A DNA stretch of 64,000 bases from Lytechinus pictus (lineage: Eukaryota): contig NC_087251.1 of the NCBI RefSeq assembly GCF_037042905.1, positions 26,724,001 through 26,788,000 on the forward strand, written 5' to 3'. This document shows positions 11,523 to 55,586 of this stretch, piece after piece. The position numbers were made by a program, and so were the translations under genes. The first letter of the stretch is position 1. Each line of letters opens with the position of its first letter. Below the pieces are notes generated by a model that was not told where the DNA came from, made no database searches, and worked only from the letters and a program-made list of their open reading frames with translations.

Positions 11523-12394
11523 AGCGATAATCTGACGATTAACTGCGCTGAGAAAATGAGTAGTATATGACTCTTGTATGTGAGTTTTGGGGTGTTGAGA
11601 TCATGCATCCAAGTAATTTTACTCGGATCTCGCGTTAATTGCTTGCGCGCACACGTGATACCGGCCAAATGTGCAGAGCATGAAGACTTTTCTGGTAAGT
11701 TCTACATGTCTTTTTATTTATTTTCCCCCTTTTCTTCTATAATTACTTTTCTTGACAATAATAGCTTAGACCTATGGGGCAAACATAAATGCTATTTATG
11801 GTGACAACAGGGTGCATTGATCTACATTCTCATCCATCCGAGGCTCACGCCTCTCGGTTTGGGTAACCACACACCAGCCTGTTGTTGTTGTTGCAAATAA
11901 GTGACATCGTCCATGATTACATAAATCATGGACGATGTCACTTATTTGCCCTCCTCATAAATGACTCCAGCAATCGTAGCGGCACACTGGCCTTCACTCC
12001 CTTCTGGCCCCGGGGTAGCGGCGCAACAACAGGCTGGTGTGTGGTTACCCAAACCGAGAGGCGTGAGCCTCGGATGGATGAGAATGTAGATCAATGCACC
12101 CTGTTGTCACCATAAATAGCATTTATGTTTGCCCCATACATGTAGGTCTAAGCTATTATTGTCAAGAAAAGTAATTATAGAAGAAAAGGGGGAAAATAAA
12201 TAAAAAGACATGTAGAACTTACCAGAAAAGTCTTCATGCTCTGCACATTTGGCCGGTATCACGTGTGCGCGCAAGCAATTAACGCGAGATCCGAGTAAAA
12301 TTACTTGGATGCATGATCTCAACACCCCAAAACTCACATACAAGAGTCATATACTACTCATTTTCTCAGCGCAGTTAATCGTCAGATTATCGCT
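11523..12394. mobile_element. 872-bp foldback element with 365/371-bp inverted arms and a 136-bp spacer; possibly Harbinger-derived
   Basis: 11523-11887 is the reverse complement of 12024-12394 apart from a 6-bp insertion in the right arm; mirrored ORFs in the track agree. Ends AGCG...CGCT; flanks TTT/TTA (imperfect TWA-like TSD). Confidence 0.9.
11893..11949. repeat. Perfect 26-bp-arm hairpin inside the foldback spacer
   Basis: GCAAATAAGTGACATCGTCCATGATT-ACATA-AATCATGGACGATGTCACTTATTTGC. Confidence 0.95.
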
Positions 12395-17626: not shown

Positions 17627-17754
17627 TAAACCTAAATAGGTTGTCAAACAATCAGGTGTCCCTGGATTCATAACTAATGGTTCAAATAATGAAGGTCGGA
17701 GTTATATAAGCTGTCATCAAAGTTTTTCAAATAGCAAGGCGACTTAAAGACCTG

Positions 17755-17925
17755 GGGGCGGTTTCATAAAGCTGTTCGTAAGTTAAGAGCGACTTTAAGA
17801 ACGACTGGTTAACCTTTCTTATGCGTTTAACCATCGCCAATGAATAAGCCATTTTCCACAAGAAAGGATCACCAGTCGTTCTTAAAGTCGCTCTTAACTT
17901 ACGAACAGCTTTATGAAACACCCAC
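17755..17925. mobile_element. Palindromic MITE at a CWG site (Harbinger-like)
   Basis: ~49-bp perfect arms GTTTCATAAAGCTGTTCGTAAGTTAAGAGCGACTTTAAGAACGACTGGT and its reverse complement; flanks CTG/CAG; related to 51930-52099. Confidence 0.85.
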
Positions 17926-20689
17926 CAGAATGGCTTTTCTTTCCATAATCGACTTAGCAAAGGTAATAATGGTAATGGTGGGCTCCCCTTTTTAGTCCGA
18001 CTCTGTTACCACGGATATGAAAAAAAGCATTTGTTCTAAAATTTCTTTTGGCAGTTACCAAAAGCTACCTTTCATAAAATACCTAACTTCCTTACATCAG
18101 ATATCGCCAATACTCCGTCTACGGCTAGGGTCTACAGATTAGCACATACGCGACCATGTTAAATGACATATTTTCAGTAAGTAGGCCTACAACAGGAAAG
18201 TAAAAGTGAAATAATTTAATTCACAAATTAGATGGGACATAATAATAGCTACTGATCATGCTAAATACTTGGGCCTAACCGACAGGACTGTGTGTCGAAG
18301 GCGACTTAGACGGTGGACCGGAATTCCACCAATTATGTATGTCAAACTGTATCATAGCTCTGTCAGTACTTTCATAGAATTTTACAAATATATTATTGGG
18401 ATCATATCAGGAACTGGTATGCTTTTTCTGTAGGTATTATAAAACATATAGAGCGTGTACAAAGTCATTCTAACCCATTCTTATCAGGTTTTGCACCGAT
18501 GCTTTTCCATAATAGTCATTAAATCTTCAGCCAACCACAGGAAAATCATCCCAAACGAAAAGGACTTAATTGGTTTACTTCTCTAACAGCCCATGTGATG
18601 AACAAACCAGTTTAGTTTGTAAAGTACCCCCACCCAAGGATCTACAAAATACTGAGAAAAGAGCCCAAAGTCCCATGCGCGTTATTGAATGTGTGCATGC
18701 AGCTGTGTCGTGTGGTGCCAACTGCGGAAGTAAGGCTTGCTATAAGGGCTTGGCAAAATCGGCTTATAGTCGAATGAAAAATCACTGGAGTAGAAACTTT
18801 CATGTCACTTTATTACAACACATGAAACAGTCGCTTGACATGTTAGGGTAGCGACTCGACAACATAATAAGAGAGTCTCTATTTCTGTCTCTGGTGTCTT
18901 CTAACCCGACCTGATTGCGAGATAACAATCGGTCGCGACTATTTTCAATAATTTCAGTAGCAATGCTTTGATTGATATCGTCACAGGTTGGAAACAATAT
19001 ATAGGTACTGTCTGGAAAATATGGAAAAGAATACAATTAATGAAATCATTGTCTATTGGATTAGTGGTTGCATGATCTTCAGTGAAGTGCATGAGTGGTT
19101 CCTCACCTGGTGAGATCTTGTGATTGAGAACGATAAAATTGGGAAGTTTTAAAGCTTCCCTCTTTTTTTAGATCCAAATGAGAAGTTAAAGAACTCGTAT
19201 ATACTCTGAAAACAGTATTAACATCTCTTCCTCTATTCATAAACAGGTCTGTGTGGAATAAATTAGAAAATAGTAATGCATATAAACTGTTTTTGATGGC
19301 TAGACAGCAACGCCTACGAAGACATAACAGAACTGTGAGAAAAATGGGTCGTTTGCAGGGGAAAAATATATCAAAGAGGAAGAAGAAAGTTTTGTTATAA
19401 GAATAGAAATGGATCAGAGACAGACATGAGAGATAAATGAAGAGAAAGGGCGAGAGAGTTAGGGGGAGGGGAGGGGTAAAGATATAGAATTTTTGACGGT
19501 GAGAAGTAAATGATACGTATATTTTTATTTTGTACAGACGGATGGATAAATACATCTGGATATTGATAGAGAGAAAGAGACAGAGAAAGATAAAAAGAGA
19601 GGGGCAAGGACGAAAGGAAAGAGAGAGATAAAGACATGGAGAAAGAGACTAAAGAGGAGAGCACATTGAGTGTGACAGCTCTGGGCATGAGACAGAGAGA
19701 GGGAGAGTTGGTTACATCCAAATAGGGGCAAGAGACGTGCCATGGCATTCCACACACGCCTGCAAGGGGCGCAGAGGCCAGCCGCCTAGGGATCGCTTTA
19801 TTAATGGTGTACTCACATGGGCGCATCCAGGGGGCAAATGGGGACAAGTTGTCTCCCGGGCGGTAAAGCACCATGCAACAAACTTCAATGCTTTCCCCCT
19901 CCCGCCCAGTTGTCATTTGATAGCCAATGCCATGCCCTTCAGCAAGTCATCAGAATCCGCCATTGCTGGACTCTAAGATAATTCGATTTTCATTCAACCC
20001 TTAAGTATCCGCACTTTCTGTTGAACCTCACCCGAGCAAAACCCTTAACCCACACCCACATCACTTAACCCTATCCTTGATCATATATCTCAAACGCCAT
20101 GTAGCATTAGTTCTGCCGAGAAAAAGGACTTCACATGCAAAAGTCATATTTGAATTTGGAGCCTTCACATATGGATAAGTAAATTTTGGCCTTCCAAATA
20201 CATGTTCTGAAACTTATTCACTTTCTATTTTCACAGTCCGGTTGCATGAATCTTATTATGAGCTTTTGTCTGATCATTAACACAAAGATAGTATTTCTGC
20301 GGTACCACTTTATGCATTAAAACTCTTCTTTTAGAGCGCATTCGGTCCAATTAGGATACAAGAAAATATGAATTGTAGGACACTTCCGAGATCATGTCAA
20401 TATGGAGACTTAATGGTACTTAAAAATTCAAATCAATTAAGAAAATATTGACATCAAATGAGGGCTCTTGATATTACTGGACATTACTCGAGAAACTCCA
20501 TTTTCCTCTAACCAACGCGACCTTTTTAAAGTTCATGCACTTCTAGGAGACCATCGAGTCGATAATTACTTAGACTGATTCTCATTTCAAGTCGTTATTT
20601 CCTTCATTTAATAAATGTAATTCAACACTTTGAATTTCCTCCCCGAATGCCCTTACTTCATATGCTACACACACAGAATTAAATAAGCA

Positions 20690-23904: not shown

Positions 23905-24254
23905 AATAAATTTTAGCGGTGTTTAATCGCTCAAATGATTTACAGTCGCAATTTGCACAATTCGTCGCGCGGTAGTTGCGCGGAGCGGCAGTTCTTATTG
24001 CGGCTGTGGTACTTGCGGTCACCTAGATCAAACGAAACCGCTCACATGGCGGCGCTCCATATAAAGTGGCCGCCTGTTTGTACTGCCGCGATGTTTACAA
24101 AACAGAATTCCTCGGGAAGTTACCGCGCATCAGAGGCGTGGGAAAGAAGCCTTTACTTGCATTCAGCATGAGTATACCGAGAGAATATAATCATTTTGAG
24201 TTGTGGTTTCGTTGAGAACACTTGTTATGTGTGAATCATCCCAATTTTAATTCC
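23905..24254 (+). repeat. Split direct repeat A1 (350 bp)
   Basis: Identical by eye to 28632-28981 at a constant offset of 4727; CpG-rich, with a TATA-like CATATAAAG near 24058. Confidence 0.95.
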
Positions 24255-25041
24255 ATCTAGGACTCGATATTGGAACTAATATCAACAGCGATAGGATTAA
24301 TAGTATCGCAGCGGCCCCTGCTTCGATTCAAATCAAATTGAATTTCAAACCTTTTGCATATGTTACATCGCGGTTTAACCTGCTTCTGGGTCTCAAGTTG
24401 AAATTTCGTAAATGATCTGGTTTCAGCAATTCTCGTTGGGGAGCCTGATTTGAGCTGTTTAGTGGAAACCAAGGAGAAATCCAAATTTCTCGTATTTATG
24501 ATGTACTTGGTGGATTTATACGAACTGGTGACCGACTAAGCAAGGATATCGAGGTGGAGAGCATCCTACTTTAAAGCTACAGTTGATGCCGCAAGGATGA
24601 GATATGTTCATTCTTCTTCTTCATTAGTTTTGCCTCGCAGATTATAGACAAAAGATTCCTACCTAACAACAAACAATACTGGCCAGATACTATAGGAAAT
24701 ATTTGGCATGCTCCATGTGGTTATAAAGGAATGAAGGTGGCGAGTCGGTATTCGTGGAAAAAGTCGGGGCCGCAGAACTTGATTGCAGTTTGTGCGTGGA
24801 GTTCATACAATTGCAGTCGGTTGGCAATTAGACCTGAAAATGTAACTTCTTTTGTCCAAGTGATGTTCATGACTAGAGGGTTTTTAGTCGTTAATGAGCT
24901 TGACTGACGGAGTTGATCTTTAACGGACCCTCGAATGCAGTAGACCATGGTTCCTTGGTAGATCCACGAGAGACCAAGGCTAGGATATGCAAGCATCCTG
25001 TGAGTATGGTATTGAGTTGGATCTACATGTATTTTCATATA

Positions 25042-26131
25042 TTTTAGGTTGACCGCCGATATACCGCCGCCCAGAGCAGCGCCTCAGTCCGTTGTCTGAA
25101 AATGTATAGATTATCCTGCATACTTCAGACTTCTAATAACTGCTGTCGAGTTGCTCTTTCAAAAAAAAATAAAAAATAAAAAATAAAATATGACTTGCCC
25201 TTCAAAATGCCGTCTTCTTCACCGAAATTCAAATCGAATATAGCATACGTTCAAAAAATTCATATTTATAAAGATGCTAAATATTAAATTTGTAAAATGG
25301 CCATAACTTCCTTAAGTTTGTTTGCATCTTCGTTTTATATTTTCAGGGTTTACTAATCATGCCATCTCTCAACATTCTAGCACGCATCAGTGATCATTAA
25401 GTTAAGATCTAGCACCCTCGATTTAAAAGTCGAAAATACTAAAGTGGCCATAACTTCCTTGTTTTCAATTATTCCGGTCTCATATTTGCAGAGTTTGCCT
25501 ATGGTATCATCCATCATAAATCGAACGGTTTTTACGCATCAGTGACCAATACCTTACTAAATAGCACCCTCTATTGAAAAAGGGCAAATGTGAACTTGCC
25601 ATAACTTCCTCGTTTGCATCCATTTTGGTCTCATATTTTTAGAGCTTACTAATTATGACTACATCCTTCATAATTCACTGGTTTGTTACGCATCAGTGAC
25701 CATTATCTTTAAAAAGAGTGCCCTCTATTGAAAAGTTGAAAATAGTAAAATAGCCATAACTTGTTGTTAATTATTTTGGTCTCGTATTATCAGGGTTTGC
25801 CTAGGGTATCATCCCTCACATTTCAAACGGGTTTTTCGCATCAGTGACCATCACCTTAATGAATAGCGCCTTCTATTGAAAAGTTGCAAAATACAAACTT
25901 GCCATACTTAATTCCTCTTTTTCATTCAATTTGGTCTCATATTTTCAGGGTTTGCTTATGGTATCATCCCCCATTATTCTAATGTTTTTCTTACGCATCG
26001 GTGAAAATTAGCTTAATAAATAGCGCCCTCTATTGAAAAGTGGAAAGTAGTGAAATGGCTGTAAATTGTTTTCATTCATTTTGGTGAGTTGACAGTACGT
26101 AGCTCAAGAGGTCCCTTCGGGCACGTTTGTT
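25042..26131 (+). mobile_element. Helentron-associated (HINE/DINE-1/pearl-like) non-autonomous element nested in the RT remnant
   Basis: Starts TTTTAG, has an internal ~150-bp tandem core, ends with the short hairpin CCC-TTC-GGG then TTTGTT in a T-rich site with no TSD; RT-like motifs resume immediately after it. Confidence 0.6.
25290..26080. repeat. Tandem array of about five ~150-bp units
   Basis: Recurring GCCATAACTT, CGCATCAGTGACC and AGCRCCCTCTATTGAAAA; the last motif at 25411, 25563, 25717, 25865, 26022 (periods 152, 154, 148, 157). Confidence 0.92.
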
Positions 26132-27258
26132 TTGCTAATACGGGAAATCTTTCAATTATTGCTTCTTCTGGATGATTTCATATTCCGAATAGGCTAGTAT
26201 GAATATTTACAGGATTACTATCTCAGAATATTGGGAAAACACAACTTGTAAGTTGTACATTAAGTCTTTTTCAATGGAGGCAGATATTCATTACTCAAAT
26301 TTTATGCATTGCGATATGTCTGTGGTGATTAGGATTTACGTGTTCCTGTAATGGATGCAAGATTCTGCCAAAAGCTTCTTTTTATTTTTGCAGCCTTTAC
26401 TGTCTGATTCACCGGGATTCAATGAAACATACCCGGCAAGCGGAGAAGAGCACATTATGCAGGCTGAGGTGGTTGCCCGGTTCAGCGGAATGGTCCATCG
26501 AGTTGAAGGTTTGCCAGCTGCCATGCCAGTGATTGGGCGGTTTGTCGATGGCGAAAACGGCCTATTTCAATGACCTGAGGACGAACGAGGTGCAGCAATG
26601 TAAGAAGAATGATATTAAGTAACACCCACGGCGTATATTTGACGGATCATCGCCCCTTCCCAAGCTCTGGCATATACCTTGGCGATACTATCGATATAAG
26701 GGGCTGTCCCTTAATTGTCAAAAGACCCTCATCGATTGGAAATGGTGGTTCGATACCATGCTGCAGCTCAGAAGGTTCAACAACTACACTTTGTTATGTT
26801 TCTATGCAACGATCTATAACTGAGTGAACTAAATCCATGGTTTGGGTAGATCTTTCAGCTACTGACGCCCTTTTAGACGGATATTTGCCACCTTTCGCAC
26901 ACCTCAGGAAAGGTCAGAGTTTTACGACCACGACGACGGGCCCTAAAGTCTTTTTCCAAAATCAACTTACGTCGCAAATTATCGTTCGCGTTCTCCAGCG
27001 GAAGGTCCGGATTATTATTGGACACGTCGGAACGACACAGTGGCAGTTAAGCTGAATATTGCTAGCCTTTTCCCCAAATTGGGTTGGAAAGCTAAGCGTA
27101 TCGTTTCCGGGACATCCTTGTATAGGCTCTTGGCCTTTATTATTTTTACCATTCGTAATATTTACGTTTATTATTGATTAGTTTTGTTTCTAATATCGAT
27201 GCCAAGGGTTGAACATTGAGCTATAGTTTTGTTTAAAAACCGTAGAATGAGATGCGAC

Positions 27259-27261
<3 letters not shown>

Positions 27262-27300
<39 letters not shown>
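27262..27300 (+). repeat. Pure poly(A) run, 39 nt
   Basis: Directly visible; lies inside the YR element between the RNase H-like and YR-like remnants. Confidence 0.95.
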
Positions 27301-27301
<1 letters not shown>

Positions 27302-27722
27302 GGTACTTCTAATTCCTTATGTTACAATGTAAAGTTACTTTTAAAGAGTTGAAATTGTCGTAATTAAGCATACGATACGCCTGCATGGTTAAGCCAATTA
27401 GCCTACGTACGTAATGTCCTTATGGACGTTATTATTTAATCAACGTTTAAGGGTTATTCTGGTTTAGTTGTTTTTCTTAATGCTACATGTGTCGTTATTT
27501 GATTGTTATATATTTTTATCATTTATTATAAAAACATACATAGATTAAATATACTTATTTTCTTTTCTTTCTCTCAATGCTAGTGAAGGAACTATGAATA
27601 ATTCTTCCCACTTTCATCATGATATTTTGTTGGATCTGTTTATTCAGTTATGCGAATTTTCTCTCGCACACATAATGAATGTTGTTTGTATCCAGCTAAG
27701 ATGTTAGTTGGTAGATCCTTAG

Positions 27723-27872
27723 GCTTGTCTTACTGCGTCTCAACCAGGTATTCGTCTTCAATACACGAAAGGTTTATTCCTTTCTTTCATTCTGTATATA
27801 TATGGTAGAAACATACTGAAGCCCATTTCATCTGGCTTGGGAAATAACGAGCTTCACGGGATTCGCAGACAA
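27723..27872 (+). pseudogene. Possible tyrosine recombinase C-terminal remnant
   Basis: Frame reads ...RNILKPISSGLGNNELHGIRRQ*; HGIRR (27855) resembles the H-x-x-R box (HSFRRG) and sits where DIRS-order elements encode YR, just before B1. Confidence 0.35.
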
Positions 27873-27928
27873 TAATACGTGAGTGACGAAGCGATATGCA
27901 CAGTGGCGGCGGGCATTGCCCGTGTGGC

Positions 27929-28634
27929 GGTAAATTGTACAATTTTTGAGCCCCTGTGCCTATCTTACGTAACTTTGGCCGGCTTCAGCATGTAAAGCTC
28001 AGTAGGAAGGTGTATTGTTTTCAATTATTTGAGATCGGATGTATTGGCCATTGCGTCTTAATTATGCCCATTTATTTCATGTTGTGCCCTTGATTGTTTC
28101 CTCGTCCATATAGGTTCACACCCTATCATGTGGAGAGGGATTTTGTTCGGGCAGTGTTTATTAATGTTGTGCCCTTTGAATGTTTCCTCGTCTGTAGAGG
28201 TGGGCACCCTATGCAGAGAGAGAATAATATTGTTGGCGTCATTATGCACCCCGGGTAGGGATATATATGTGCGGACGCGGGGCGGACGCTTTAGTAAATT
28301 GTGATTGAATTATCGGATAAAATATACCCGGGTCCTTCCAAGTAGTTATGCTGAAGCCGTCCTCTTTAAGTGGTATACCCATTTTATGAAGTTATAACAT
28401 TGAACTTGAATTGAATTGAATTGAATTGAACTTAGGATGGAGATCTACAGATTTAAGAATCGTAATATTATGTATTCAAATTATGTTAGTATAAAATCAT
28501 CCTACAACCAAGTTATTCATGTCGTAATCGTCAAGATTATGAAGCCTATTCACATAATGTATTATGTATGAGATTAAAACCACAACCAATGGCACACCTT
28601 AGTTTCTTGTGCTTGTGTGAATTGTGAGTGTAAT
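27929..28634 (+). repeat. Split direct repeat B1 (706 bp)
   Basis: Matches 29507-30212 at a constant offset of 1578 (identical translated ORFs); contains (TTGAA)n. Confidence 0.95.
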
Positions 28635-28981
28635 AAATTTTAGCGGTGTTTAATCGCTCAAATGATTTACAGTCGCAATTTGCACAATTCGTCGCGCGGT
28701 AGTTGCGCGGAGCGGCAGTTCTTATTGCGGCTGTGGTACTTGCGGTCACCTAGATCAAACGAAACCGCTCACATGGCGGCGCTCCATATAAAGTGGCCGC
28801 CTGTTTGTACTGCCGCGATGTTTACAAAACAGAATTCCTCGGGAAGTTACCGCGCATCAGAGGCGTGGGAAAGAAGCCTTTACTTGCATTCAGCATGAGT
28901 ATACCGAGAGAATATAATCATTTTGAGTTGTGGTTTCGTTGAGAACACTTGTTATGTGTGAATCATCCCAATTTTAATTCC
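28632..28981 (+). repeat. Split direct repeat A2 (350 bp)
   Basis: Copy of 23905-24254; overlaps B1 by AAT and begins AATAAA. Confidence 0.95.
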
Positions 28982-29506
28982 CTCCTCCTCCCCTCTTAGA
29001 CCACCTGTCATATGTTATCATAATTAAATTACATAATCACGGGTCCGGTAGTGAATTGGCGGAAAATTGATATTGTCTGTAGATTTATTTTTAGTCTTAA
29101 GGGCGCTACGCCCTCAAATTGAGTACCCATGGAGAACATTCAAATAAGCTATCATGCCTGTGCAATTTGCTGGTGCCTCAGACTGTGTTAGTATTGTTTA
29201 GTTGTCGAAGCTTTGCTTGGCAGTAAGGGGCTTTTCTCCTCCTTCGACCATGGAGGTTTTCACCCTTACCTGAGGTTCGCAGCACTTTGCACTCGAGCAG
29301 GGGGTGCATTTATATTGCCCCTGCCCGGTCATTTAGGGTACGTGTTCAAGTTCAAGGGGACCATCGATCCCACGGATATAGTTATATCATGTAAACTTAT
29401 ACACTTAATGTAAACTTATATATATATTGCTAGAATGATTTCAGCAGTTGGTTTATGATGTTGGTATGTCTGTTCTATCTGAACATACATTGCACATCTT
29501 TCGTTA

Positions 29507-30212
29507 GGTAAATTGTACAATTTTTGAGCCCCTGTGCCTATCTTACGTAACTTTGGCCGGCTTCAGCATGTAAAGCTCAGTAGGAAGGTGTATTGTTTTC
29601 AATTATTTGAGATCGGATGTATTGGCCATTGCGTCTTAATTATGCCCATTTATTTCATGTTGTGCCCTTGATTGTTTCCTCGTCCATATAGGTTCACACC
29701 CTATCATGTGGAGAGGGATTTTGTTCGGGCAGTGTTTATTAATGTTGTGCCCTTTGAATGTTTCCTCGTCTGTAGAGGTGGGCACCCTATGCAGAGAGAG
29801 AATAATATTGTTGGCGTCATTATGCACCCCGGGTAGGGATATATATGTGCGGACGCGGGGCGGACGCTTTAGTAAATTGTGATTGAATTATCGGATAAAA
29901 TATACCCGGGTCCTTCCAAGTAGTTATGCTGAAGCCGTCCTCTTTAAGTGGTATACCCATTTTATGAAGTTATAACATTGAACTTGAATTGAATTGAATT
30001 GAATTGAACTTAGGATGGAGATCTACAGATTTAAGAATCGTAATATTATGTATTCAAATTATGTTAGTATAAAATCATCCTACAACCAAGTTATTCATGT
30101 CGTAATCGTCAAGATTATGAAGCCTATTCACATAATGTATTATGTATGAGATTAAAACCACAACCAATGGCACACCTTAGTTTCTTGTGCTTGTGTGAAT
30201 TGTGAGTGTAAT
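29507..30212 (+). repeat. Split direct repeat B2 (706 bp)
   Basis: Copy of 27929-28634; ends in AAT at the element boundary. Confidence 0.95.
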
Positions 30213-31730
30213 GTCAAACATGTTTACGGTTTGGGATCGGTCGTAATCCCACCCTAATCCACATTGATTCGAGATTGTAGATTTCAGTTGAAAGGATTCA
30301 CTTAATATTCATGATGTATTGCTAGTGTATCTTATCATTTCTATAGTTTCCCCGGGAATTTTAGCATGATTTAATTCAACTGAAATCTTACAGCGTTGAT
30401 TCGTATCATTTCACAGAGAAGTAATGCTCTTCTAATAATCAACAGGCAAACGCAGTCGATTCCTTCATCCCTACACAAAAGGGATGTTTTCCATACACTA
30501 GAAAAACCCTTTTGATCACTATCGCAGACAACGCAATGCAAATATTGCTTTAAAGGCCAAGGGCACGATGCAATATGAAAAATATATATTTCTATTCTAT
30601 TAATTATGCATGCGGTTTTGGTATGAGATTTTACTGTATTGTATTGTGCCCAGTTTTATTCTAGAGATTAAAAGGCAGTAGGCCCAATGCCAAACATGAC
30701 ACGCATTCAATGCGGGTTGCTCATTATTTTTCTTCTGCGCTCACGATACTATACTTAAAGGTCTCTACTATATTCTTAACTCCCCAGTGATTTATAAATA
30801 ATGCTATCCACCATTATGTTTTTATATGTCTTTATGTAAATAACATCAGAAATCTGGACAAAAAATCACTATAGAGAAATTCCAAGCTCCTATAATCATG
30901 CGAAAGAAAATGTCTAAACTGTCTAAACACTGTTTAGAAGTACAGAAACTATGAGCAATAATACCCCTAACAAATCTCTAGCTAAAACCACGCAACGACT
31001 CCAATCCATGGCAACGGTGACATATTCCACGGCTTTTTTTATTTCACACCCAACATAATGGCGCCTCGCCGAGTGTTCTTTGACTAAAATCAATATCTAT
31101 TCCTTTGTATATCCATGGTTATCACAGCTGAATGTGACCTTCATTAAAGTACAAAGAACCATGGAATGGGAGAGACAAATTTCTCGCAATCATAATCATA
31201 TTTTACCATCGTTTTAGCGGACAGGTGTGCCCAGGGTTGAGCAAATAAATATGGATATATTTTTTCTGCACACTATTCAAGGACAGTACAATATACTAGT
31301 ATCTTTCCTATACCCTTAAAAAATGTCTAAACAATTGAACACGAATAACGCTATTTTTTAATGTGCCATTGAGTCCTTTCAAAACGTTTACATCCCCAAA
31401 GTCTCTACATTCCCTCTCACATTCATTTAGGATATTTTGATATTAAAATATTCACTCTTTAGTTCGGTATTTCATGGTAATTCACTCTGCTTTTGTTTTA
31501 CTACGTTACAACAAATAAACCATTAATCATATCACTTTATCGATACAATTGAGAACTTGGATATCCAAATTTAAGCTAATATCAAAGTCTGAACATGAAT
31601 GGAGCTGCAATATTTAGATTGGCATCATTGTTAAGCCCTTTTCTACAAAAATTACTTTAAAAGGGAAGAATTTTAAAGTCCAAGGGCGATTCAAATCCGG
31701 ACGCTCGAGTCTTTGATGCACTCATTACCG

Positions 31731-42016: not shown

Positions 42017-42865
42017 TGCGACTGTGGTAACAACTAGTGCAGTAATCTTAATAAAAGTCACTTGTTTGTAAGTACAAGATACCAAGATGTACTAAATATA
42101 CATGAAGCCTATATATGCAATGGAGCACCGGAGCATAACGAAAGGCCAACAAAGCAATTGTTTCGCCCATTATTGAGCCGTGACAAGCGTCTACCCGTAT
42201 CGATTTAGCGAAGAAATAGTTCTTCTTCCACGAAACTTTCTAGAGAGTTCATCATTAATGGTCATTGCACCCGCAAAATGTCTTACACAGTGTATTAGTA
42301 TATTGACAACTACTAGTAATATCTATAATTTTAAGTGGGATTTAATAATTACCCTTTTATTTCTGTATAGCGAGATGCGCGTGGATACGTTGCCAAGACG
42401 ACGATATTGATTTCATTTTACCCGTACTTTACCCAGAATAGTCATGATCACCTGTGATTAATAATATAATTTTGGTTTTCTATCAACTTTTAGATGAGCG
42501 TTACATCAGACAGAGAACTAGAGAACTAAATATCTTAAATAGAGTATTATTGCAATTAAAAACAAATGTTCCAAGAATGCAATCTTATTTTAAAGAATGG
42601 ACTATAAAACAAATTGGTTTTTACTCTACAACGGGCAATCATCTTGCTCTAAACATTACCGACGTACTCATTATCAATATGATAAATGTGAGTATTATCT
42701 AATTTTCAAAGAAAATTAACACCCCTTTTGATCAGAAACAAAATATTTTTGAAGCGTAGTACGTAAACAGACAGCAATTTGATTATTTCACATCGGTAGA
42801 TGATACCACTTCGCGAAATACGATTTATCACATCGAAATTAAGCACTAAAGCAGTTAAGAATTAA

Positions 42866-43281
42866 ATGTTGCAAGTTGGATAAGACTCGAACCGGTACAG
42901 ACATGTTTCTAGATTCAATAGATACCAAATGGAGGAATAGTTATGGTTTACGCGTATGGGCATAACGCTTGTGTAACCAACCATCCAAGGATTCCAGTAA
43001 ATCAAGCCTTAATGAATATTATCATCTTAAGTATCTCCGGGATCTGATTCCTGATGACAAAACCTGATAGAGACGAGGCCATTGGCCAAGCTATGAAGCC
43101 AGGGGCGCAGAAGACACTCCCTCTCAGTTGGGACAAGAAAAATCTCCCAATTCTTTAACATTTTTGTTCATTATGCTGTTTTCATTTATCGCAGCGGCTA
43201 ATTTTTCTTCATTAGTATGGTTAAGCGCTGTGATATAAGTTTACTCATTCTATAAGAATGATAATTCCGAAATTAGAATAA
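42866..43281 (+). repeat. Left copy of a ~415-bp dispersed inverted repeat
   Basis: Reverse complement of 48121-48535 with scattered substitutions and small indels; related ORF tails (WDKKNL.IL). Confidence 0.92.
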
Positions 43282-45059
43282 TTAACTAATAAAAAAGAAA
43301 TTTATTGATTAATGGAACCAAAAATTCTAATCAAAGTTTGATGTTAACTTATTATATTCAGAGGAAGCGACAAAGCACGTTACAAAGTAATTTTCTGGGA
43401 AATTTTCCTCCCAATCCGCCATTGTCCGCCCCCCCCCATTAACGTGTAAAACACCCTTCGTCATGATCCATTCCATTCTGAAAAGGGAAACCATATATAC
43501 AGTCAAGAGCAAAATTCATGTACAAGTTTGTCATTTTTTCATTAAGTGAATATTAGTACACCAAAACCCACACTCACTGAGAAGATGAAGATAAATTCGA
43601 TGACATTAGTTTTTGAGTGATGTGAAGTGCGCTCAAATGTTTGATTTCACTCTTGACTGCAATTTAACGGTATACCTGCAACAGTTTATTCCCACGGGTG
43701 ATTCAATATTTCACTAAAATCAATGTTCATTCAAGTACTCTGGACCAATCAAACTAAAAAGGAAATTGATTTCACTTTTGAGGGTATTTACCCTAACTAA
43801 TATGAAATCATTTTTCTAAATATGTTAAAATCTATCACAAGATTATTATCAACACATTCTGTGTATTAATTCTACATTCCATGCAAAGAAATTATATACG
43901 GAAAATCGTTTATTAACCTAAACACTTTATAATTTCTTGACCCAGTCTTAAAAAGAAAGAAAAAATTGATTTGATTGAAATCAAACTCTTATTTGATGCG
44001 AATCAATCGCAAATCTTTGTAAGACGAGTTCCACCAAATCCAAAAAGGAACAAAAGGGATATTTTGGGAAATTTATCATCCAAATCGCATAGAAAATAGG
44101 ACCAGCTGCATGCATGTTTTGAGATTAATTGAAACAAGTCTAATATTTTAGTAAGGATTTCTTTGTTTCTTTGTTTCTACATTGCTTGTGTCTTAATTAG
44201 CCATTACTAATCCGGTGCCTTTGAACTTGACCCCCCTTCTCTCCAACAACTCATCAGCCTTTGTGTGACGTAACTAATGAGAACTCATTGTCCTTCTAGT
44301 TCCAATGACAGAGAATGCTTCAATTAGACCATCGTTGTAAATGACTTTGACAGCGGAGATCTAATGGTGGAGAGCTAACGGATTATCTATCTTACCCCGT
44401 TGTTTAATGAAGACAAAGAAAGAGCAGACACTACAGAGTTCGCTGATTCAATTCAATGTTCTCTTCTTGTCTGTTAAAAAACAGCTGGTAGTGAAAATTT
44501 GGTTTCGCACCGAGTTGCACCGTCTCTGTCCAACACTCTGGAGACAAACAATGCACGAGTCAATTGTTTTAGAATCTTATTAGAATTTTAACGACACAAA
44601 AATAAAACATTTTCCCCCCAAAAAAAAAGTCAGAAAGAATAAAAATAATGGAACCTTGTTCTAAACTAGTAAGTATACTTATGCGTGACTCCAAAGTGTA
44701 TACACATGTATTTAGCATAGCAATAAAGAGGGATCTATGCAACACCCCGATGCATTTCATAATAATCTTTCAGTTCATTAGGATACAGATGGCAAGATAT
44801 TATAGATAAGCACGGAATTAAAACGTGTCACAAGAACCTATCCTGCAGGCTTCAATCGCCCAGATGAAACAGCCGTAAATATTCTTCTCCGTTACATCTG
44901 ATGACAATGCAGTGTCCAACCTTGTCCCCAAGGGGGAATGAGCACAGGATCACACGCCGAATTATGATAAATAATTCCCGTCACATGACCACATAATACA
45001 ATCACGGAATGGGCAGCGGGCGAAGGGACGATGTTGTTTACGCGCGCGGGAGAAACCGC

Positions 45060-45072
45060 GTTGCTAGGCAAC
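45060..45072. promoter_or_regulatory. RFX X-box-like palindrome in a GC/CpG-rich patch (~44900-45250)
   Basis: GTTGC-TAG-GCAAC matches the RFX consensus; function untested. Confidence 0.4.
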
Positions 45073-46581
45073 TGCACTTGGAGCGCATCACCTGGGACTA
45101 GAGTTTCATGGGAGGAGATCGGGCAATGTTGGTAGAGATGATGAAAACTACCTGGAGTGGTGGCTGGTCCGTGTGGGATGCTTCAGCGTGGGCCGTCGAG
45201 GAAACAGAAGGGGTTGGTGATTACAAGATGCATTACAGCCCAGGTGACGCAAACTGAAAGATTTCGTCCATTTTTTTTGGTCGGCAGTCTATTTCCAGGC
45301 TGACACGGAATTTCTTCTTCTGATTTATTGATGTGATGAATTTATTCCCAGTTATCTTTCAACCTCAGATGGGGGTTTTCAAATTTTGAAGCCTTCTTTT
45401 TATCTTTGGATTACACAAAAATATGAATTCAATAGTTGTAATCTTCTACAATTTTGTTGTCTATATAATATTGCCTAACATTTTGTACTACACCTGATGA
45501 GACTTTGCTTGATAACTTTAACAAATGGCTGTTTAAAGTCGATTTATCCGAACACACAACCTGTCCGGACACACAGCAATTGGGTATAAATGTTAAAAAC
45601 GATGATTTAAAAAAATCTGTATTCAAAATCATCAGGTGAGCGCTTATTTGTTATTTGGGCATAGCCATGGTGTCAATGCACATTATTACAGAAAGAGACG
45701 CTCAGAAATAAAGCATTTCATTGAAGAATAAATATATCTAATTTAATTCTAAATGGAAGCACAAGATACAAATATTTGATTCCCAATAAACATCGTTACA
45801 ATAAAAAACAATCGAACATCAAGTTCACAACCCCCTCCCAAGATTCCCAAACCTTCCATTCATTAATCACCATAAATCCCCAGTCCAGGGACTACTCCGG
45901 AGATATCCCCTTTGAACTTGGCTATTATAGGAAAGCATCTCAGTTTGTTTATAATGGTGACCATTTCGCACGAACGCGGCTTATACTCCATCGCTGTCAC
46001 CGACTGAATCTTTGTTTAACAGCCCGGATTACGACCTGCAATTGACAAGGTCAATATTGAAGAGGACAATGCCCACACGAATGTTTTTCAATCGCATCTA
46101 TTGAGTAATTGGAATGACCTCAGCTCATCCACAAATCTCAATGATGAAGTCACAGTTTCTCGTTGTTAACAAATTGTGTCGATAGAGCACATCGATGTAA
46201 ATCAAATAATTCTAAACATTATTTTCTATCTGGAGTCAAACGAATCTCATTTAAAAAAATCGCATGTGTTTATCGAATTACGTCCATTAGAATATCAATT
46301 AGCTTCATTAAATCAACGAAGAAAATGAAATAGTACTATGATCTGACAGCTATACGATAAGAAAAGAGTAAAAAAAAAGTAAGTACACATTCTATATCGT
46401 TATCTGCTGAACTTCTAGTCAAGAAAAAAAAACCGGAACCCTTGGTATATGCTCATTCTTTTCTTTAGAAAGGTCTTTTTAGTCAATTAGCGATGGTAGT
46501 TAAAGGGAGACAGACTTGAACATAGCCAGGAGATTTATCACGGTATCATTGCAGAGACTACAGGTTATAGCATAGGAGCTG

Positions 46582-46710
46582 GGTCCCGTAACACAAAGGC
46601 TAGCGATTGATCGTACGCTTGATTTCTACGATTGATTGTACATTGTAGTCTATGGAATCAATCGTAGAAAAATGTTCTACGATCATTGCTAAGTTTTGTG
46701 TTACGGGCCC
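46582..46710. mobile_element. Palindromic MITE (129 bp) with CTG TSD (Harbinger-like)
   Basis: GGTCCCGTAACACAAAGGCTAGCGATTGATCGTA ... TACGATCATTGCTAAGTTTTGTGTTACGGGCCC; CTG on both sides. Confidence 0.85.
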
Positions 46711-48120
46711 CTGGACTTGGTTTTTTTAAGCAGATGACACCCGTAAGTCATCCAGCCTCATTAAAAGAAATATAGAAGGTCACGTGGATGCTCTGCCTCC
46801 CTGGGCCATCTCAGGTTATGTGATGTGTTTGGGCTGTTGCTAGGCTAGAGAGAAACTCCATGCGGTCTTCGTGATCTATTCGGCCATACCTCACGTGCCA
46901 GGGTAGGTTAAGGGGGAGCCCTAAAGCCAACCAAACATAAACGATAGCCTTAAACACTCAATCATGTCAGCAGGCGACATTTTATGGGGTTACGTATATA
47001 TACGCCATTCGGCGGCGCCACGTAATGAACGCCACACATTCGTGTATTCAACCATACAGTTGGCACTGACAGATTTATATATTGTGTGTGTGGGTGTAAG
47101 TGTGTGTATGTGTGTGGGTGGGTGTGTATATCAGTGTGTGTGAGCAGCGGGACCAATTCTTTTGGGTCTACATGTTTGCAGTATATTGTCCAATTACGAT
47201 TTCGAACATTATGCATGAAATTCCCTCAATTACTGGTATTAAAGTACTATAAATATCATTTTGTCATAAAAAAAACTTCATTGCCAATCACTGGGCCCAA
47301 TCAAAACCTCATCATTTTGTTTTGTTTTGTTTCTTGTTGTTTTTCCCCATTGAGCATATTAAAAACGAATAAACCTAAATGGACGCGTCAGCTGTAAAAG
47401 AGAAAGGATTTCAACTCAAACTTATTAATACAAGCGATTTCACAAATCAAATCATGCCAAATAATGTCCCAAAAGGGCTGTAATATATTGATACGTCAAT
47501 GGCACATCAGTATTGTCTTTTGATGAAAGCGAGTTGTGAAATACAACTATATTTACTTTGCGGCAACCTTTATAAATCCATTTTCTCAACTAGACTACGT
47601 TGATTTGTGAAGGCATTAAGAGATGATGTCTTCCCTGAATGGGTGTTTCGATGTACCTCGATGCCTCTGTGTTCTCAGCCAATCGGATGTTAAGGATTTC
47701 AGCAGCTTTTATCAGTTGCCTAATAAAATCACACACAATCGCTTCGTGAATACTCCTGCATGCGGTAATATTAATGTACTTGGTTCGACAAATCGAATTT
47801 GATTTAAAGTGATCTTCTAGGAATTTTTTTTTCTTTCATAGAAAGATTCTAGGAATTTATGTGGAATGATTAACTGAAACTTACATTATCACAACCATTG
47901 TGTGGAAAACTAATAGCGCATGACTGAAGTACCCTGAAAATTATGAACATTTTCATTTAACATAATTGAAAAACTGTGTAAATTATAAGGGTTGGTTTCT
48001 TTCAATTTGTTTAAATTACGACATTTACGTATTTCTCTTGAACCCTTTGCTTTTTCTTTCTGTTATTATCATGAATATAAAATATTTTAGTTCAACTCAT
48101 CTTCCGCTTACTACACTTTT

Positions 48121-48535
48121 TTATTCTAATTTTGGAATTATCATTCTTATAGAATGAGTAAACTTATATCACAGCGCTTAACCATACTAATGAAGAAAAA
48201 ATAGCGATAAAAGAAAACAGCATAATGAACAAAAATGTTAAAGAATTGAGAGATTTTTCTTGTCCCAACTGTGACGGAGTGGCTTCTGCGCCCCTGTCAT
48301 CATAGCTAGGCCAATGGGCTCGTCTCTATCAGGTTTTGTCATCAGGAATCCATGGAGATCCCGGAGATACTTAAGATGATAATATTCATTAAGGCTTGAT
48401 TTACTGGAATCCTTGGATGGTTGGTTACACAAGCGTTATACCCCTATGCGTAAATCATAATTATTCCTCCATTTGGTATCTATTGAATCTAGAAAAATGT
48501 CTGTACCGGTTCGATTCTTATCCAACTTCCAACAT
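48121..48535 (-). repeat. Right copy of the ~415-bp dispersed inverted repeat
   Basis: Reverse complement of 42866-43281. Confidence 0.92.
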
Positions 48536-49719
48536 ATCATAATTTGATTTAAAAATATTCATACTACTATCCTTGCTGTTTTTTTTCAATTTGCACTTAT
48601 CATGTCCTTTTCTTTAAAACAGCACCACCGTCTATTTTTACCCTGTCTATAAATTAATCTATCAGTGTCTTTCCAACGTCTGAAGCTATTAGAGGTGACA
48701 GGATTTATTCTTTAGATCGCACATAAGGAAATAATTCCAGACCTCTTTTTACCATGGAGCACGCTCCCCGGGCATTCATACAAATTAACGTCAAGGCTTT
48801 CAAACCTCTCTGCGTTAAATGACAAATCTGTTCAATTTGTCTAAATTGCAGATATCCAACAATGCCATACAACAATCATACATCCCCTGGGGGCATATAC
48901 TATGACTATCCTGTGTTTACCCATCTATAATGTATCCTCATCCTTCTCAGTATCTTCTTTACAAGGATGTCATGATAAACATTCTGTCACAAATGGCATA
49001 AAATATCTCATCATACTTAAAAATATCATTTAATACTTAACTTAATGCTTAAATTTATCAACTTCAATGAAATGTTTTGGCTAATTAGTCAGTGATAAAA
49101 AAGACTTCCACTTCTTCTGCAGACGAGATGAATTTAATCAGAAACATAATCATATTTTACTGAAAAGAATAAAATTAACTTGAAAATTATTGGAAAATCC
49201 GACAACAAACAAATGTATATATTTCCAGGGCTTTAAGCAAATCAGCATAAAATAGTGTATCAACATCTTAGGTAGATAGTTAATTTCGCAATACGTGGCT
49301 ATAAAAGTATAATATTACTAAAAAATAAAATACTGTTACCTTTAACAAGAAAAAAAGAAAATAGCAGCCGACATGAGGACTCTAACATATATTTGCAGTA
49401 TCTAACTTGTTTTTTAATGATACATCCCATAATATTTATTGTAATTATTTTCTTAACTATAATTTCAGAAAAGCCGAATTCCAAACTTCGCACCCCTTTC
49501 TTCTATCTAATGCATATGATGCACATGGGGCAATTAAAAAAAAAATTCTGAAGTGGTGTCACTTTTATTTTGTTTTTTATTATTATTACTACGACCATCG
49601 CTATAGCTTTTTGGATTGAGTCCATGGGTCACGTGACAACGATGCTTACGGCGAGGGGGATAATGTTTGATGTATGGGGATTGAGAGAGATTGATCACAA
49701 ACTAGAGCCAAACCCAACT

Positions 49720-49940: not shown

Positions 49941-51929
49941 CATCATGAATAATATTTTTGAATCTATTCTACTCACAAGGACCTAAATTTAAAAACAAAG
50001 TTAGCAAATATATTGTCCGTATTCTTTTTTTTATTTCATTTTTTTACAGAAATAATATTTGTGTTCCGAGTCTTCATTAGTCTTAAAAATCTTTACGATC
50101 CACGTAAGCGTCAGAAAATGCAAAGTTCGCATATACAGTACATGTATAAGCAGTCAGCATTATCATTATTTTTGTTACAACAGGTCATAATATATAAAGC
50201 TCTAATTGGGTGGAAGCGAGGACACATGTGGTGTTTTTCAGCCGATTTCATTAACGTCTTAACTAAGGTCAGCCTACCACATTTGTCATTGATTGTCTTG
50301 ATATGTAATTGAGGGCATACTAACTATCATTCATTAATGATTAATCATTCTTAGAAGAGCTCCTCATCACTAACAGAAAAATAATTTTGCTTTTTTTCTC
50401 TGGACAACAACTGGATTTCCAAAGAATTTATTGCCATCGAGGTTTATCATTTTACTTCCAATCATTCGTCATAGATTAGAGGGGAACATCATAACATAAA
50501 CCTGCCACTTTTTTACAAAAGTTTCTACACAAACTGTGCACCAGATCATTTAATTCAATTTTTGAATAATACAAGTACAAAAAAAATGGGAACAAATCAG
50601 CTTGGTTTGCTTCGTTCCCTTGCCGATATATGCATGAACATCTTACTGATTCTTTCGACTTTATTCAAACAATAACAAAGAACTCATGCGCAAAGCTAGG
50701 GTTGATTGGCGTCGAGGTCACTTGCCAAAGCACGAATTCTGGCCATATTCAGCTTGGTAATTTTGAGTAATAGCCATCCTAGATTTATCAATTTTATTCA
50801 AATGGAGATTAGCAATAAAAATATCAAGCGTTTGTTTAAAATTTCCTTGCCATTGAAGGTGTTTATATCAATTTTATTGAATTTTGAAGTAGAATTTGTC
50901 ATGTTACACAGATTCGAGAAATCTTCAGAAAATGTTTTAAAAGCTGTTTTTTTAACCACTTGATAATGCTATAATGTTTAAGCCTAGCACTGTATGTAAT
51001 GGAAGTGATTTTTATGTCAACACAAGATGTTACATTAACTAGGTAACATCGGAAACTGTTAATCAAATTCTATATCAAACGCTTCCTGTTGGGAAATAAA
51101 CTTTGTTCATGTTTTAGTGCCATATCAGGTTACCTTAGACAAATCCTTTGCAATGACATTCGATCGTAGAACTATACAATGTTTTTACTTTGTGGGTAAT
51201 ATCAGAAGCTTGCTCAAGCTCCTGAAATAATCACGATCTTTGCGGTGAGTGCTTATCAGGTACAACTCACTGCGGTTGCAACTTAAAGGTAATGCAGAAA
51301 GATCCTACACATACTCATTTCAGCTTTTTTCACCAACTTATGTTCATATAAGAATCAATGGATTTCATGTAGGCCCGCATGTAGGAAGCATAATGGTCGA
51401 CGGAGAACATGGATATTTTTTTACTTGCTTGTTCTGTAGTTTCTCAACCTTTTTTTTTCACCTATACCCTTAAAAAGCAAAGTTGAAAATGTTTACTTTA
51501 TAACAAGTAGTGACTATAAAACAGAGATTTTTCTTTAGTTATTTCAAGTGAACGGTCCAATTTCATTCCATATTTGCTCATATTTACTCAACAAAGAATG
51601 ATTAATTAGATTAATCAGATCTACGCCATAATTCTGCCTTGAGCTTTTTAGAACACACAGGAATAATTACTATTCCCACGGAATGGACCAGCTTAATTTA
51701 GATAACTGAAAATGTATTTACTGCATCCATATATACCAGCTCATTGGTATAGACCATCATACTGAATAGAGTCCATATTTAGGTACTGCACGTGACATTT
51801 TAGCTCGCGTGCCAGTCGATTGCACCCCTTACCGAAACAGCATGGTGCGTAACTAGTTATACCTCAACATCGAGGGATGTAGCAACCATCAGTCATCACA
51901 GCGGCCATGTTGCAACCAATAGGGACCAG

Positions 51930-52099
51930 GGGCCCGTTTCATAAAGCTGTTCGTAAGTTACGAATGAGGTTACGCACGACTGGTGACCCTTTCTTGCGCT
52001 CAATGATATCCCTATGTAACCGATTTAGCACATAATAACAGGTTTCAGTCGTGTGTAAAGTAGTGCGTAACTTAACGAACAACTTTATGAAACACCACC
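51930..52099. mobile_element. Palindromic MITE with CAG TSD (Harbinger-like), relative of 17755-17925
   Basis: GGGCCCGTTTCATAAAGCTGTTCGTAAGTTA ... TAACTTAACGAACAACTTTATGAAACACCACC; CAG at 51927-51929 and 52100-52102. Confidence 0.85.
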
Positions 52100-53985: not shown

Positions 53986-54398
53986 AGGCCACCGCACACC
54001 TTACAACTGTTCGCGATCCTATTTTGGAACAAATCGCACTTTGCCCTTTTCTGAAAATGTGAATGGAACATACATTTCATTTGAGGTTAAAATTAATTGA
54101 AAGAATACTAATATAACCATTTTGAAAGATTGCAAACCTTTATTTTGGAGTAAAGGCCAAATTAGTTTCAAATTGTAGCCAATCGTACGACTGCTATGAC
54201 GTCATTACAACTAGATATTAAATTCGCTTTTATTCTAAGAAGGATGATAGCATAGTCACAGATTTGAACATAGGTATTCGTACGATGATTTCGAATATTA
54301 CACAGTAAGATATTCCAAGTCTCAATATTAGCATCAAATTCTACAACATTTTATTCTGAAATCGGGTCGCAGACCAATCGTAAGGTGTGCGGTCGCCT
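53986..54398. mobile_element. PIF/Harbinger-like MITE (413 bp), TTA TSD
   Basis: TIRs AGGCCACCGCACACCTTAC / GTAAGGTGTGCGGTCGCCT; TTA at 53983-53985 and 54399-54401. Confidence 0.85.
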
Positions 54399-54401
54399 TT
54401 A

Positions 54402-55586
54402 AGCCCCTTTCACAATTGACGTACGACCTGTTTACGACCACCTGCAACAGTTTTTTCTTGTTGTTGCACGATCGATCCCTTGGTGTCTTGCGAGCACTCG
54501 CAGTCGTTGTAGACGATCGCACAAACTCGAGGTGGTCGGAGGTGATCGTGACTGGTCGCATCTGAACTTTGAACATGTTCAAAATCCAAACGCGATCAAA
54601 TACGATTGATTCACTCGCAACAGGTCGTACCATCGGTCGGGCGATCATCGTGTGAGTATTGTTCAACGTTGTACGACTTGGTGCGAGAGGTGGCACAACT
54701 AAGTATAGTCGCATTTAGTCGACTGGAGGTCGTACAACACTTGCACATGTGCTGGAGACCTACAGAGACCAGTCTTGCGACTGGGTGCGATAATATGAGA
54801 CTGTTGCAAGACCGATCGAAATTACGGCTTACTACATTCCACTACCGTTGCATTCGCATGTATGCGACCGTTCAGCCCCTTTCACAATTGACGTCCGACC
54901 AGTTTACGACTGCCTGCAACAGTTTTTTCTTGTTGTTGCACGATCGATCTCTTGGTGTCTTGCGAGCACTCGCAGTCGTTGTAGACGGTCGCACGAACTC
55001 GAGGTGGTCGTGACTGGTCACATCTGAACTTTGAACATGTTCAAAATCCGAACGCGATCAAATACGATCGATTCACTCGCATCAGACCGTACCCGGGGTC
55101 GTACCATCGGTCGGGCGATCATCGTGCGAGTGTCGTTCAACGTTGTACGACTTGGTGCGAGAGGTGGCACAACTAAGTAGTCGCATTTACTTGACTGGAG
55201 GTCGTGCAAAACTTGCACATGTGCAAGCGACCTACATGTACAGAGACCTGTCTTGCGACTGGTTGCGATAATAATATGGGCCATAAGACTGTTGCAAGAC
55301 CGATCGCAACGGCTTACAACATTGCACTACCGTTTCATTCGCATGTATGCGACCGTTCCACTCGCAATCCCTCGTGCAACACTCGCATGTGATCGCACGA
55401 GCACAATAAGAGTATATGCGACTTACTCGTGCATCGGGGTTTACTGGTTGTTTTGTTGTACGACAGCTGTTGCAACTGTGAAAGCCTCTGTGCGATCTTA
55501 TGAGATGACTAGCGATTGATGCCTGTTGCAGCCTGTCGCACGACCAAAAGGTCGCAAATGGTCGTACGTCAATTGTGAAAGGGGCT
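54402..55586. mobile_element. PIF/Harbinger-like non-autonomous element with a duplicated 5' part, TTA TSD
   Basis: 27-bp TIR AGCCCCTTTCACAATTGACGTACGACC and its reverse complement; TTA at 54399-54401 and 55587-55589; a second left TIR at 54874 starts a full 713-bp copy after a 472-bp partial copy; CGAC/GTCG-rich. Confidence 0.9.

Follow-up and report, generated by a model that had tools for sequence, protein, structure and literature searches.

Split direct repeats and short cores in described elements

The closest described systems for the locus reported here are retrotransposons of the DIRS order. The layout A1-[ORFs]-B1A2B2 is given as the defining feature of Ngaro, PAT and VIPER (PMC8547959, PMC9210276, PMC6681497, PMC4157794), and split direct repeats are also described for the Toc elements (PMC4157794). 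For DIRS-53_XT, the entries consulted list pairs that are 100% identical, with A 236 bp and B 152 bp long (PMC8547959, PMC9210276, PMC4157794, PMC6681497). TOC1 of Chlamydomonas reinhardtii is presented as the non-autonomous partner of TOC3, within the PAT group of the DIRS order (PMC5613634, PMC9940879).

For DIRS1-like elements, the published model holds that a 3-bp junction common to both ends is recombined with an identical triplet of the host (PMC3266345, PMC7192593). By our own count of the published Table 3, AAT is the commonest junction, found in 13 of the 28 tabulated DIRS1-like elements, and 10 of the 28 begin with one trinucleotide and end with another, third-base cases among them (PMC3266345). 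The cDNA of DIRS-1 is described as mainly linear and single-stranded, and inverse PCR yielded no product across a circle junction (PMC7192593); since that junction was never amplified, the circle is unproven in the published literature too.

The current model of DIRS-order elements already combines a core with a circle, and finding these features at a further locus is in itself unsurprising. Such a core was probably reported for Ngaro already by Goodwin and Poulter in 2004.

The element described here lies at 23905-30212 of the window, by which we mean the whole stretch of 64 kb that was analysed. It is very probably a recent insertion of a non-autonomous DIRS-order retrotransposon with split direct repeats, of Ngaro/PAT layout and gene-less in the manner of TOC1, for which another element would supply reverse transcriptase (RT) and tyrosine recombinase (YR). 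With Ngaro and PAT-like elements, including the echinoderm Pat1, as these are described, it shares the order A1-body-B1-A2-B2 and 100% identical repeat pairs, but it differs from them in having no detected gag, RT/RH, YR or MT, in its long B (706 bp) and in the 525-bp spacer between A2 and B2. The likeness to TOC1, drawn from published descriptions, is that both are non-autonomous members of the YR order with split direct repeats, whereas a helper is known for TOC1 and the window element comes from an animal-type host. TOC1 contains an internal tandem array.

Other described groups resemble the element in part. As in the DIRS1-like elements of the published tables, the terminal trinucleotide recurs in a copy at the internal junction, AAT/ATT being commonest and one-base mismatches at an end frequent there, and no target site duplication (TSD) was found; DIRS1-like elements, however, have inverted termini and, internally, a complementary region that is inverted as well, whereas the repeats here are all direct, and the first and last 100 bp share no inverted match longer than 8 bp. 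SIRE of Trypanosoma cruzi, an A2-B2 derivative of VIPER, is likewise a non-coding derivative of split repeats, but it is described as a short A-spacer-B remnant, whereas the window element keeps four repeats and a 3.7-kb body (PMC6681497). Among the passages retrieved by a literature search, none describes large gene-less split-repeat elements in animals, the only related items being the Chlamydomonas case and one zebrafish paper on 'DIRS-N1'; ORF-less DIRS-order animal families may already stand in repeat databases, which lie outside the literature searched.

Architecture of the element

Counting both terminal AATs, the element is 6308 bp long and is arranged as A1-body-B1/A2-spacer-B2 on the plus strand, to which all features below belong except a hairpin and a tandem array, which have no orientation. 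Extension of exact matches gives A1 (23905-24254), which begins with AAT, and A2 (28632-28981) as 350 bp of 100% identity, and B1 (27929-28634), which ends with AAT, and B2 (29507-30212) as 706 bp of 100% identity. All four repeats are direct and form two interleaved pairs, and the four borders of this layout are sharp. Across both pairs, 0 of 1056 positions differ, an outcome with a probability of 2.5e-5 at 1% divergence. The body (24255-27928, 3674 bp) is non-coding according to ORF, profile and protein searches, and the spacer (28982-29506, 525 bp) is unique by self-comparison; sequence comparison finds the two unrelated, with a best match of 22 bp. The remainder of the 64-kb window gave no blastn match to the element.

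Several smaller features were noticed inside these parts. Repeat finding places a diverged tandem array in the body at 25382-26085, with a period of 151 bp, about 4.3 copies and 72% matches. On either side of the array stands one arm of a 10-bp inverted pair (25219, 26078; one mismatch), and the second arm (26078) lies about 45 nt from a T-rich end, which we take to be like the ends of invertebrate HINEs; the region 25215-26131, where no significant hairpin was found, is possibly a decayed nested HINE-type element. On inspection, the body also holds a run of 39 As (A39, 27262-27300) without flanking duplication, a possible tail of a captured retroposed piece. Within B there are two imperfect direct repeats of 56 bp (82%) at 28071-28126 and 28157-28212, the same in B2, and an ATTGA microsatellite at 28399-28430.

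Coding capacity

The element contains no ORF of at least 150 aa, the longest being 120 aa, and the gag, RT/RNase H and YR ORFs that mark an autonomous Ngaro, PAT or VIPER element were not found. A Pfam search of 12 read-through frames (X at stops) detected no RT, RNase H, YR/recombinase or gag family; the weak, unrelated matches were all under the curated cut-offs (best ATHILA, E 0.003) and were set aside. One of the six body frames (plus strand, 24256-27255), compared by phmmer with 1.84 billion proteins, gave 0 matches, and a word search that compared longer proteins with one 266-aa read (26352-27149) yielded 0 matches among 833 candidates. Rfam and the tRNA scan likewise gave 0 matches each. 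Faint coding remnants are possible in the body frames beyond those searched. Because no remnant of RT, RNase H, YR or gag was found, the tie to YR enzymes is a structural one, and as the methyltransferase domain and RT phylogeny both call for coding sequence, Ngaro and PAT are not separable for this element.

The AAT core at the ends and the internal junction

Exact extension shows that B1 and A2 overlap on 28632-28634, which reads AAT, and no further; 28632-28637 reads AATAAA. The left joint is GAGAAAC|AAT|AAATTT, the internal one GAGTGT|AAT|AAATTT and the right one GAGTGT|AAT|GTCAAAC, so that the left terminal AAT occupies 23905-23907 and the right one 30210-30212. The earlier note had claimed an AAT core common to both ends and the internal junction, and the three joints print exactly as claimed; its further statement that the element's ends, joined through one AAT, give the internal B/A junction follows from the same letters. 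The tyrosine-recombinase reading that it attached to them is supported by the layout together with this core, that is, by structure. The AAT overlap at the window locus alone is only suggestive evidence for a core: if A and B merely abut and flanks are random, an overlap of at least 3 bp has a chance probability of 0.06, and with 6% at one locus, other copies are needed. Around the core there are no inverted arms, the longest being 4 bp, and no palindromic recombinase arms. Over 1056 bp, the junction of a circle would have the very sequence of the internal B/A junction, and for this reason reads across it are unable to prove a circle.

In the flanks of the element, no direct repeat of any length from 1 to 14 lies outside the AATs, and a conventional TSD of variable length seems to be absent, as the note had proposed. 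One host AAT becoming two formally equals a 3-bp TSD, and the locus could on this ground be read as two DNA or LTR-type elements in tandem, with shared ends and a fixed 3-bp AAT target duplication made by a DDE integrase, the internal AAT being the duplication between the two. No terminal inverted repeats were found here; the body and the spacer, which would form their interiors, are unrelated, and the identical B/A junction recurs in another sequencing run (X11, record 9). The argument from repeat identity (0/1056), set out below for a rolling-circle dimer, applies here too, and we regard tandem elements as highly improbable.

Other copies and a putative empty site

Four of 23 sequencing runs (three organism labels) were aligned to 28600-31600, a reference that contains A, the spacer, B and the right flank, each once. 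Run X1 is labelled organism A and may be the assembly's own sample, X13 is DNA of organism B, X11 is organism C, and X21 is an RNA run. The end forms were taken from 15 of 36 loose ends, and AAT at these ends was read from alignment end points.

In X1, the window's own left flank stands before 28632, another left flank is found before 28631, and another right flank follows behind 30213; both foreign X1 alignments run through AAT. In X13, two contigs, which represent one right-end form, stop at 30211 and continue with A, so that this end is AAA. The prediction that other copies begin and end in AAT therefore stands for 2 of 2 left ends, one of which is foreign to the window, and for 1 of 2 foreign right-end forms among the 15 of 36 loose ends, and it fails for the AAA form. 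That form counts against the core reading, yet it is within known DIRS1-like variation, since start and end are mismatched in 10 of 28 published elements, including at the third base; by the same figure, the rule that other copies must begin and end in AAT is too strict. A G directly follows the core position in all three right ends (window, X1, X13); a target preference for G was set aside, three right ends being too small a sample.

The earlier note had further predicted an empty site with a single AAT, and one contig of organism B has the matching geometry. In record 21 of X13 (2159 nt, depth 37.6, minus strand), positions 1-857 align from 31026 to 30210, where the right AAT begins with its first A; the other 1302 nt, beyond 30210, match nothing in the aligned stretch. 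Its orientation was set by X11 record 14, with 661 - 518 = 143 loose letters before the lowest place, and also by a 30-nt overlap with record 22. The site thus lacks B and keeps AAT on the host side, where the contig alignment starts at 30210; this is the geometry of an empty site, and it is likely one. The predicted right-hand side is found in this contig, and the left-flank side is read as geometry only.

Further pieces of the element recur in these runs. The B/A junction is found again in X11 (record 9), the sequence that precedes B1 also precedes B in X11 and X13, and X13 has both entries into B, body-to-B as a loose end and spacer-to-B as a joint from 29452 to 29576. In X1, depths of 25.7 for A, about 17 for the spacer, 32.7 for B and 2 for the flank suggest several near-identical copies and imply no copy number. 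The element is present at more than one insertion site and is apparently multi-copy. A search of metagenomes with a 22-mer of the right flank and one of the A start gave 0 matches each.

Could the layout be an assembly artefact or a local duplication and not a mobile unit at all? Mis-assembly can yield 100% identical repeats, and X1 may be the assembly's sample; against this stand the interleaved layout with its four sharp borders, the runs of other studies, in which different flanks occur as well as the B/A junction and the two joints that lead into B, and the X13 site without B. An artefact is, on this evidence, hardly credible.

X11 holds pieces of the element that are 98-99% identical to the window, at a depth of 2-9 and with no flank among them. 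Either traces of organism A's DNA or a close copy in a different species would account for them; given the former possibility, they were not counted as another species and not taken to indicate horizontal transfer. In X13, a loose end behind 28980 carries A followed by sequence that resembles neither the beginning of the body nor that of the spacer and that could belong to a sister family or to an autonomous partner sharing A.

Repeat identity and the rolling-circle alternative

The pieces of X13 are several per cent off the window, with, for example, 21 differing letters over 29147-29350 and 46 over 30210-31026. Between organisms the family is several per cent apart, yet the paired repeats of the window show 0 differences in 1056 positions, a contrast that calls for re-templating of the repeats. 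Copying both ends from the B1/A2 joint would reset the repeats, and a static dimer would not; gene conversion could likewise hold them alike.

An alternative to a split-repeat retrotransposon is a Helentron/HINE-like rolling-circle composite. Such a composite would lie on the minus strand, where two units with common ends would follow each other head to tail between two Ts; ATT/AAT would then consist of terminal letters of the element and a T|T target, and a recombination core would not exist. In our reading, a minus-strand insertion at T|T fits all five end forms seen, including AAA. A weak hairpin just inside A (23910-23936, also in A2) lies 5-32 nt from the minus-strand 3' end, and the 8-bp inverted match lies 52-59 nt from it, roughly where HINEs, as described, have such features (PMC4067079). 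The described HINE subTIRs are, however, 12-15 bp long (PMC4067079), whereas the 8 bp found here are reached by 15% of random pairs, and the hairpin is borderline (z -1.9), 9-10 of 200 shuffles folding equally well. Moreover, the middles of the two would-be units are unrelated (best match 22 bp), canonical Helitron ends (TC...CTRR) are absent, and a dimer has no means to hold 1056 bp of paired repeats identical while its family diverges by several per cent. We consider the rolling-circle composite improbable.

Transcript signals

The AATAAA at the junction (28632-28637) had been put forward as a possible poly(A) signal, a suggestion that we abandon. Its 30 downstream nucleotides hold 16 G/T, below the median of 17, so that a G/T-rich downstream element is lacking; the motif is no more than the opening six bases of A and is present as well at the element's first base, 23905; and a transcript ending at the junction would lose A2-spacer-B2, which would be needed in the copying cycle proposed below. 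Near the end of B, ATTAAA occurs at 30151-30156 in B2, with a G/T-rich tract at 30180-30209 (25/30), and the same motif stands in B1 at 28573. The window plus strand contains 133 AATAAA/ATTAAA motifs, three of which are followed by a 30-mer with at least 25 G/T, and B1 and B2 supply two of these three with their ATTAAA; the 25-of-30 threshold was chosen after the tract in B had been seen. By motif context, ATTAAA with its tract (30151-30209) appears the better poly(A) candidate, and a poly(A) site at the B end implies read-through of its copy in B1. At the other end of the element, TATAAA occurs once in A, at 24060-24065 (position 156), as a TATA-like box that may serve as a promoter. In the RNA run X21, 5 reads aligned out of 8.7 million (6% of the run), and they gave 0 RNA starts or ends.

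A proposed copying cycle

For the non-autonomous split-repeat retrotransposon that we favour, these features can be arranged in a cycle. The RNA would start inside A1, near the TATA-like box at 24060, read through B1/A2 and end inside B2, behind ATTAAA at 30151 and the G/T tract. Reverse transcription across the B1-AAT-A2 joint would then rebuild the lost start of A and the lost end of B, and such rebuilding from the internal joint would reset A1=A2 and B1=B2 at each jump. The ends of the element would thereby be joined through one AAT, as a circle, and a helper recombinase acting in trans would cross the AAT of the circle with an AAT of the host, tolerating one mismatch. After the crossover, an AAT would stand at either end of the insertion, without a true TSD. 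We infer the steps from RNA through end regeneration and circle to crossover from the published DIRS-order model, and a circular DNA intermediate of this element with them.

The circle would hold two B-AAT-A junctions, one made by the joined ends and one from B1/A2, which would be identical over 1056 bp and locally indistinguishable to the recombinase. Integration through the internal junction would give permuted copies of the order A-spacer-B-A-body-B with new flanks on AAT, an outcome that we rate as rather unlikely. If permuted copies exist, the genome itself proves the circular intermediate, which amplification failed to show for DIRS-1; if they are absent, the enzyme picks the newly made junction. 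From the two identical junctions a sharp alternative follows, copies that are permuted or copies that are not, and the value of the element is that of a test case, being young and apparently multi-copy, with exact ends and, in a related organism, what is likely an empty site.

Other elements in the window

The 64-kb window contains further repeats. At 11523-12394 lies a fold-back element, by its appearance a young MITE, whose arms of about 370 bp are 100% complementary. Two inverted arms at 42861-43281 and 48121-48540, each about 420 bp long and 94-98% complementary, enclose about 4.8 kb without an ORF of 150 aa, and the unit 42861-48540 is likely a non-autonomous DNA transposon. A tandem duplication with a period of about 470 bp and 88-96% identity is located at 54396-55236, and a short palindromic element at 17749-17928 has a partial second copy at 51924-52005.
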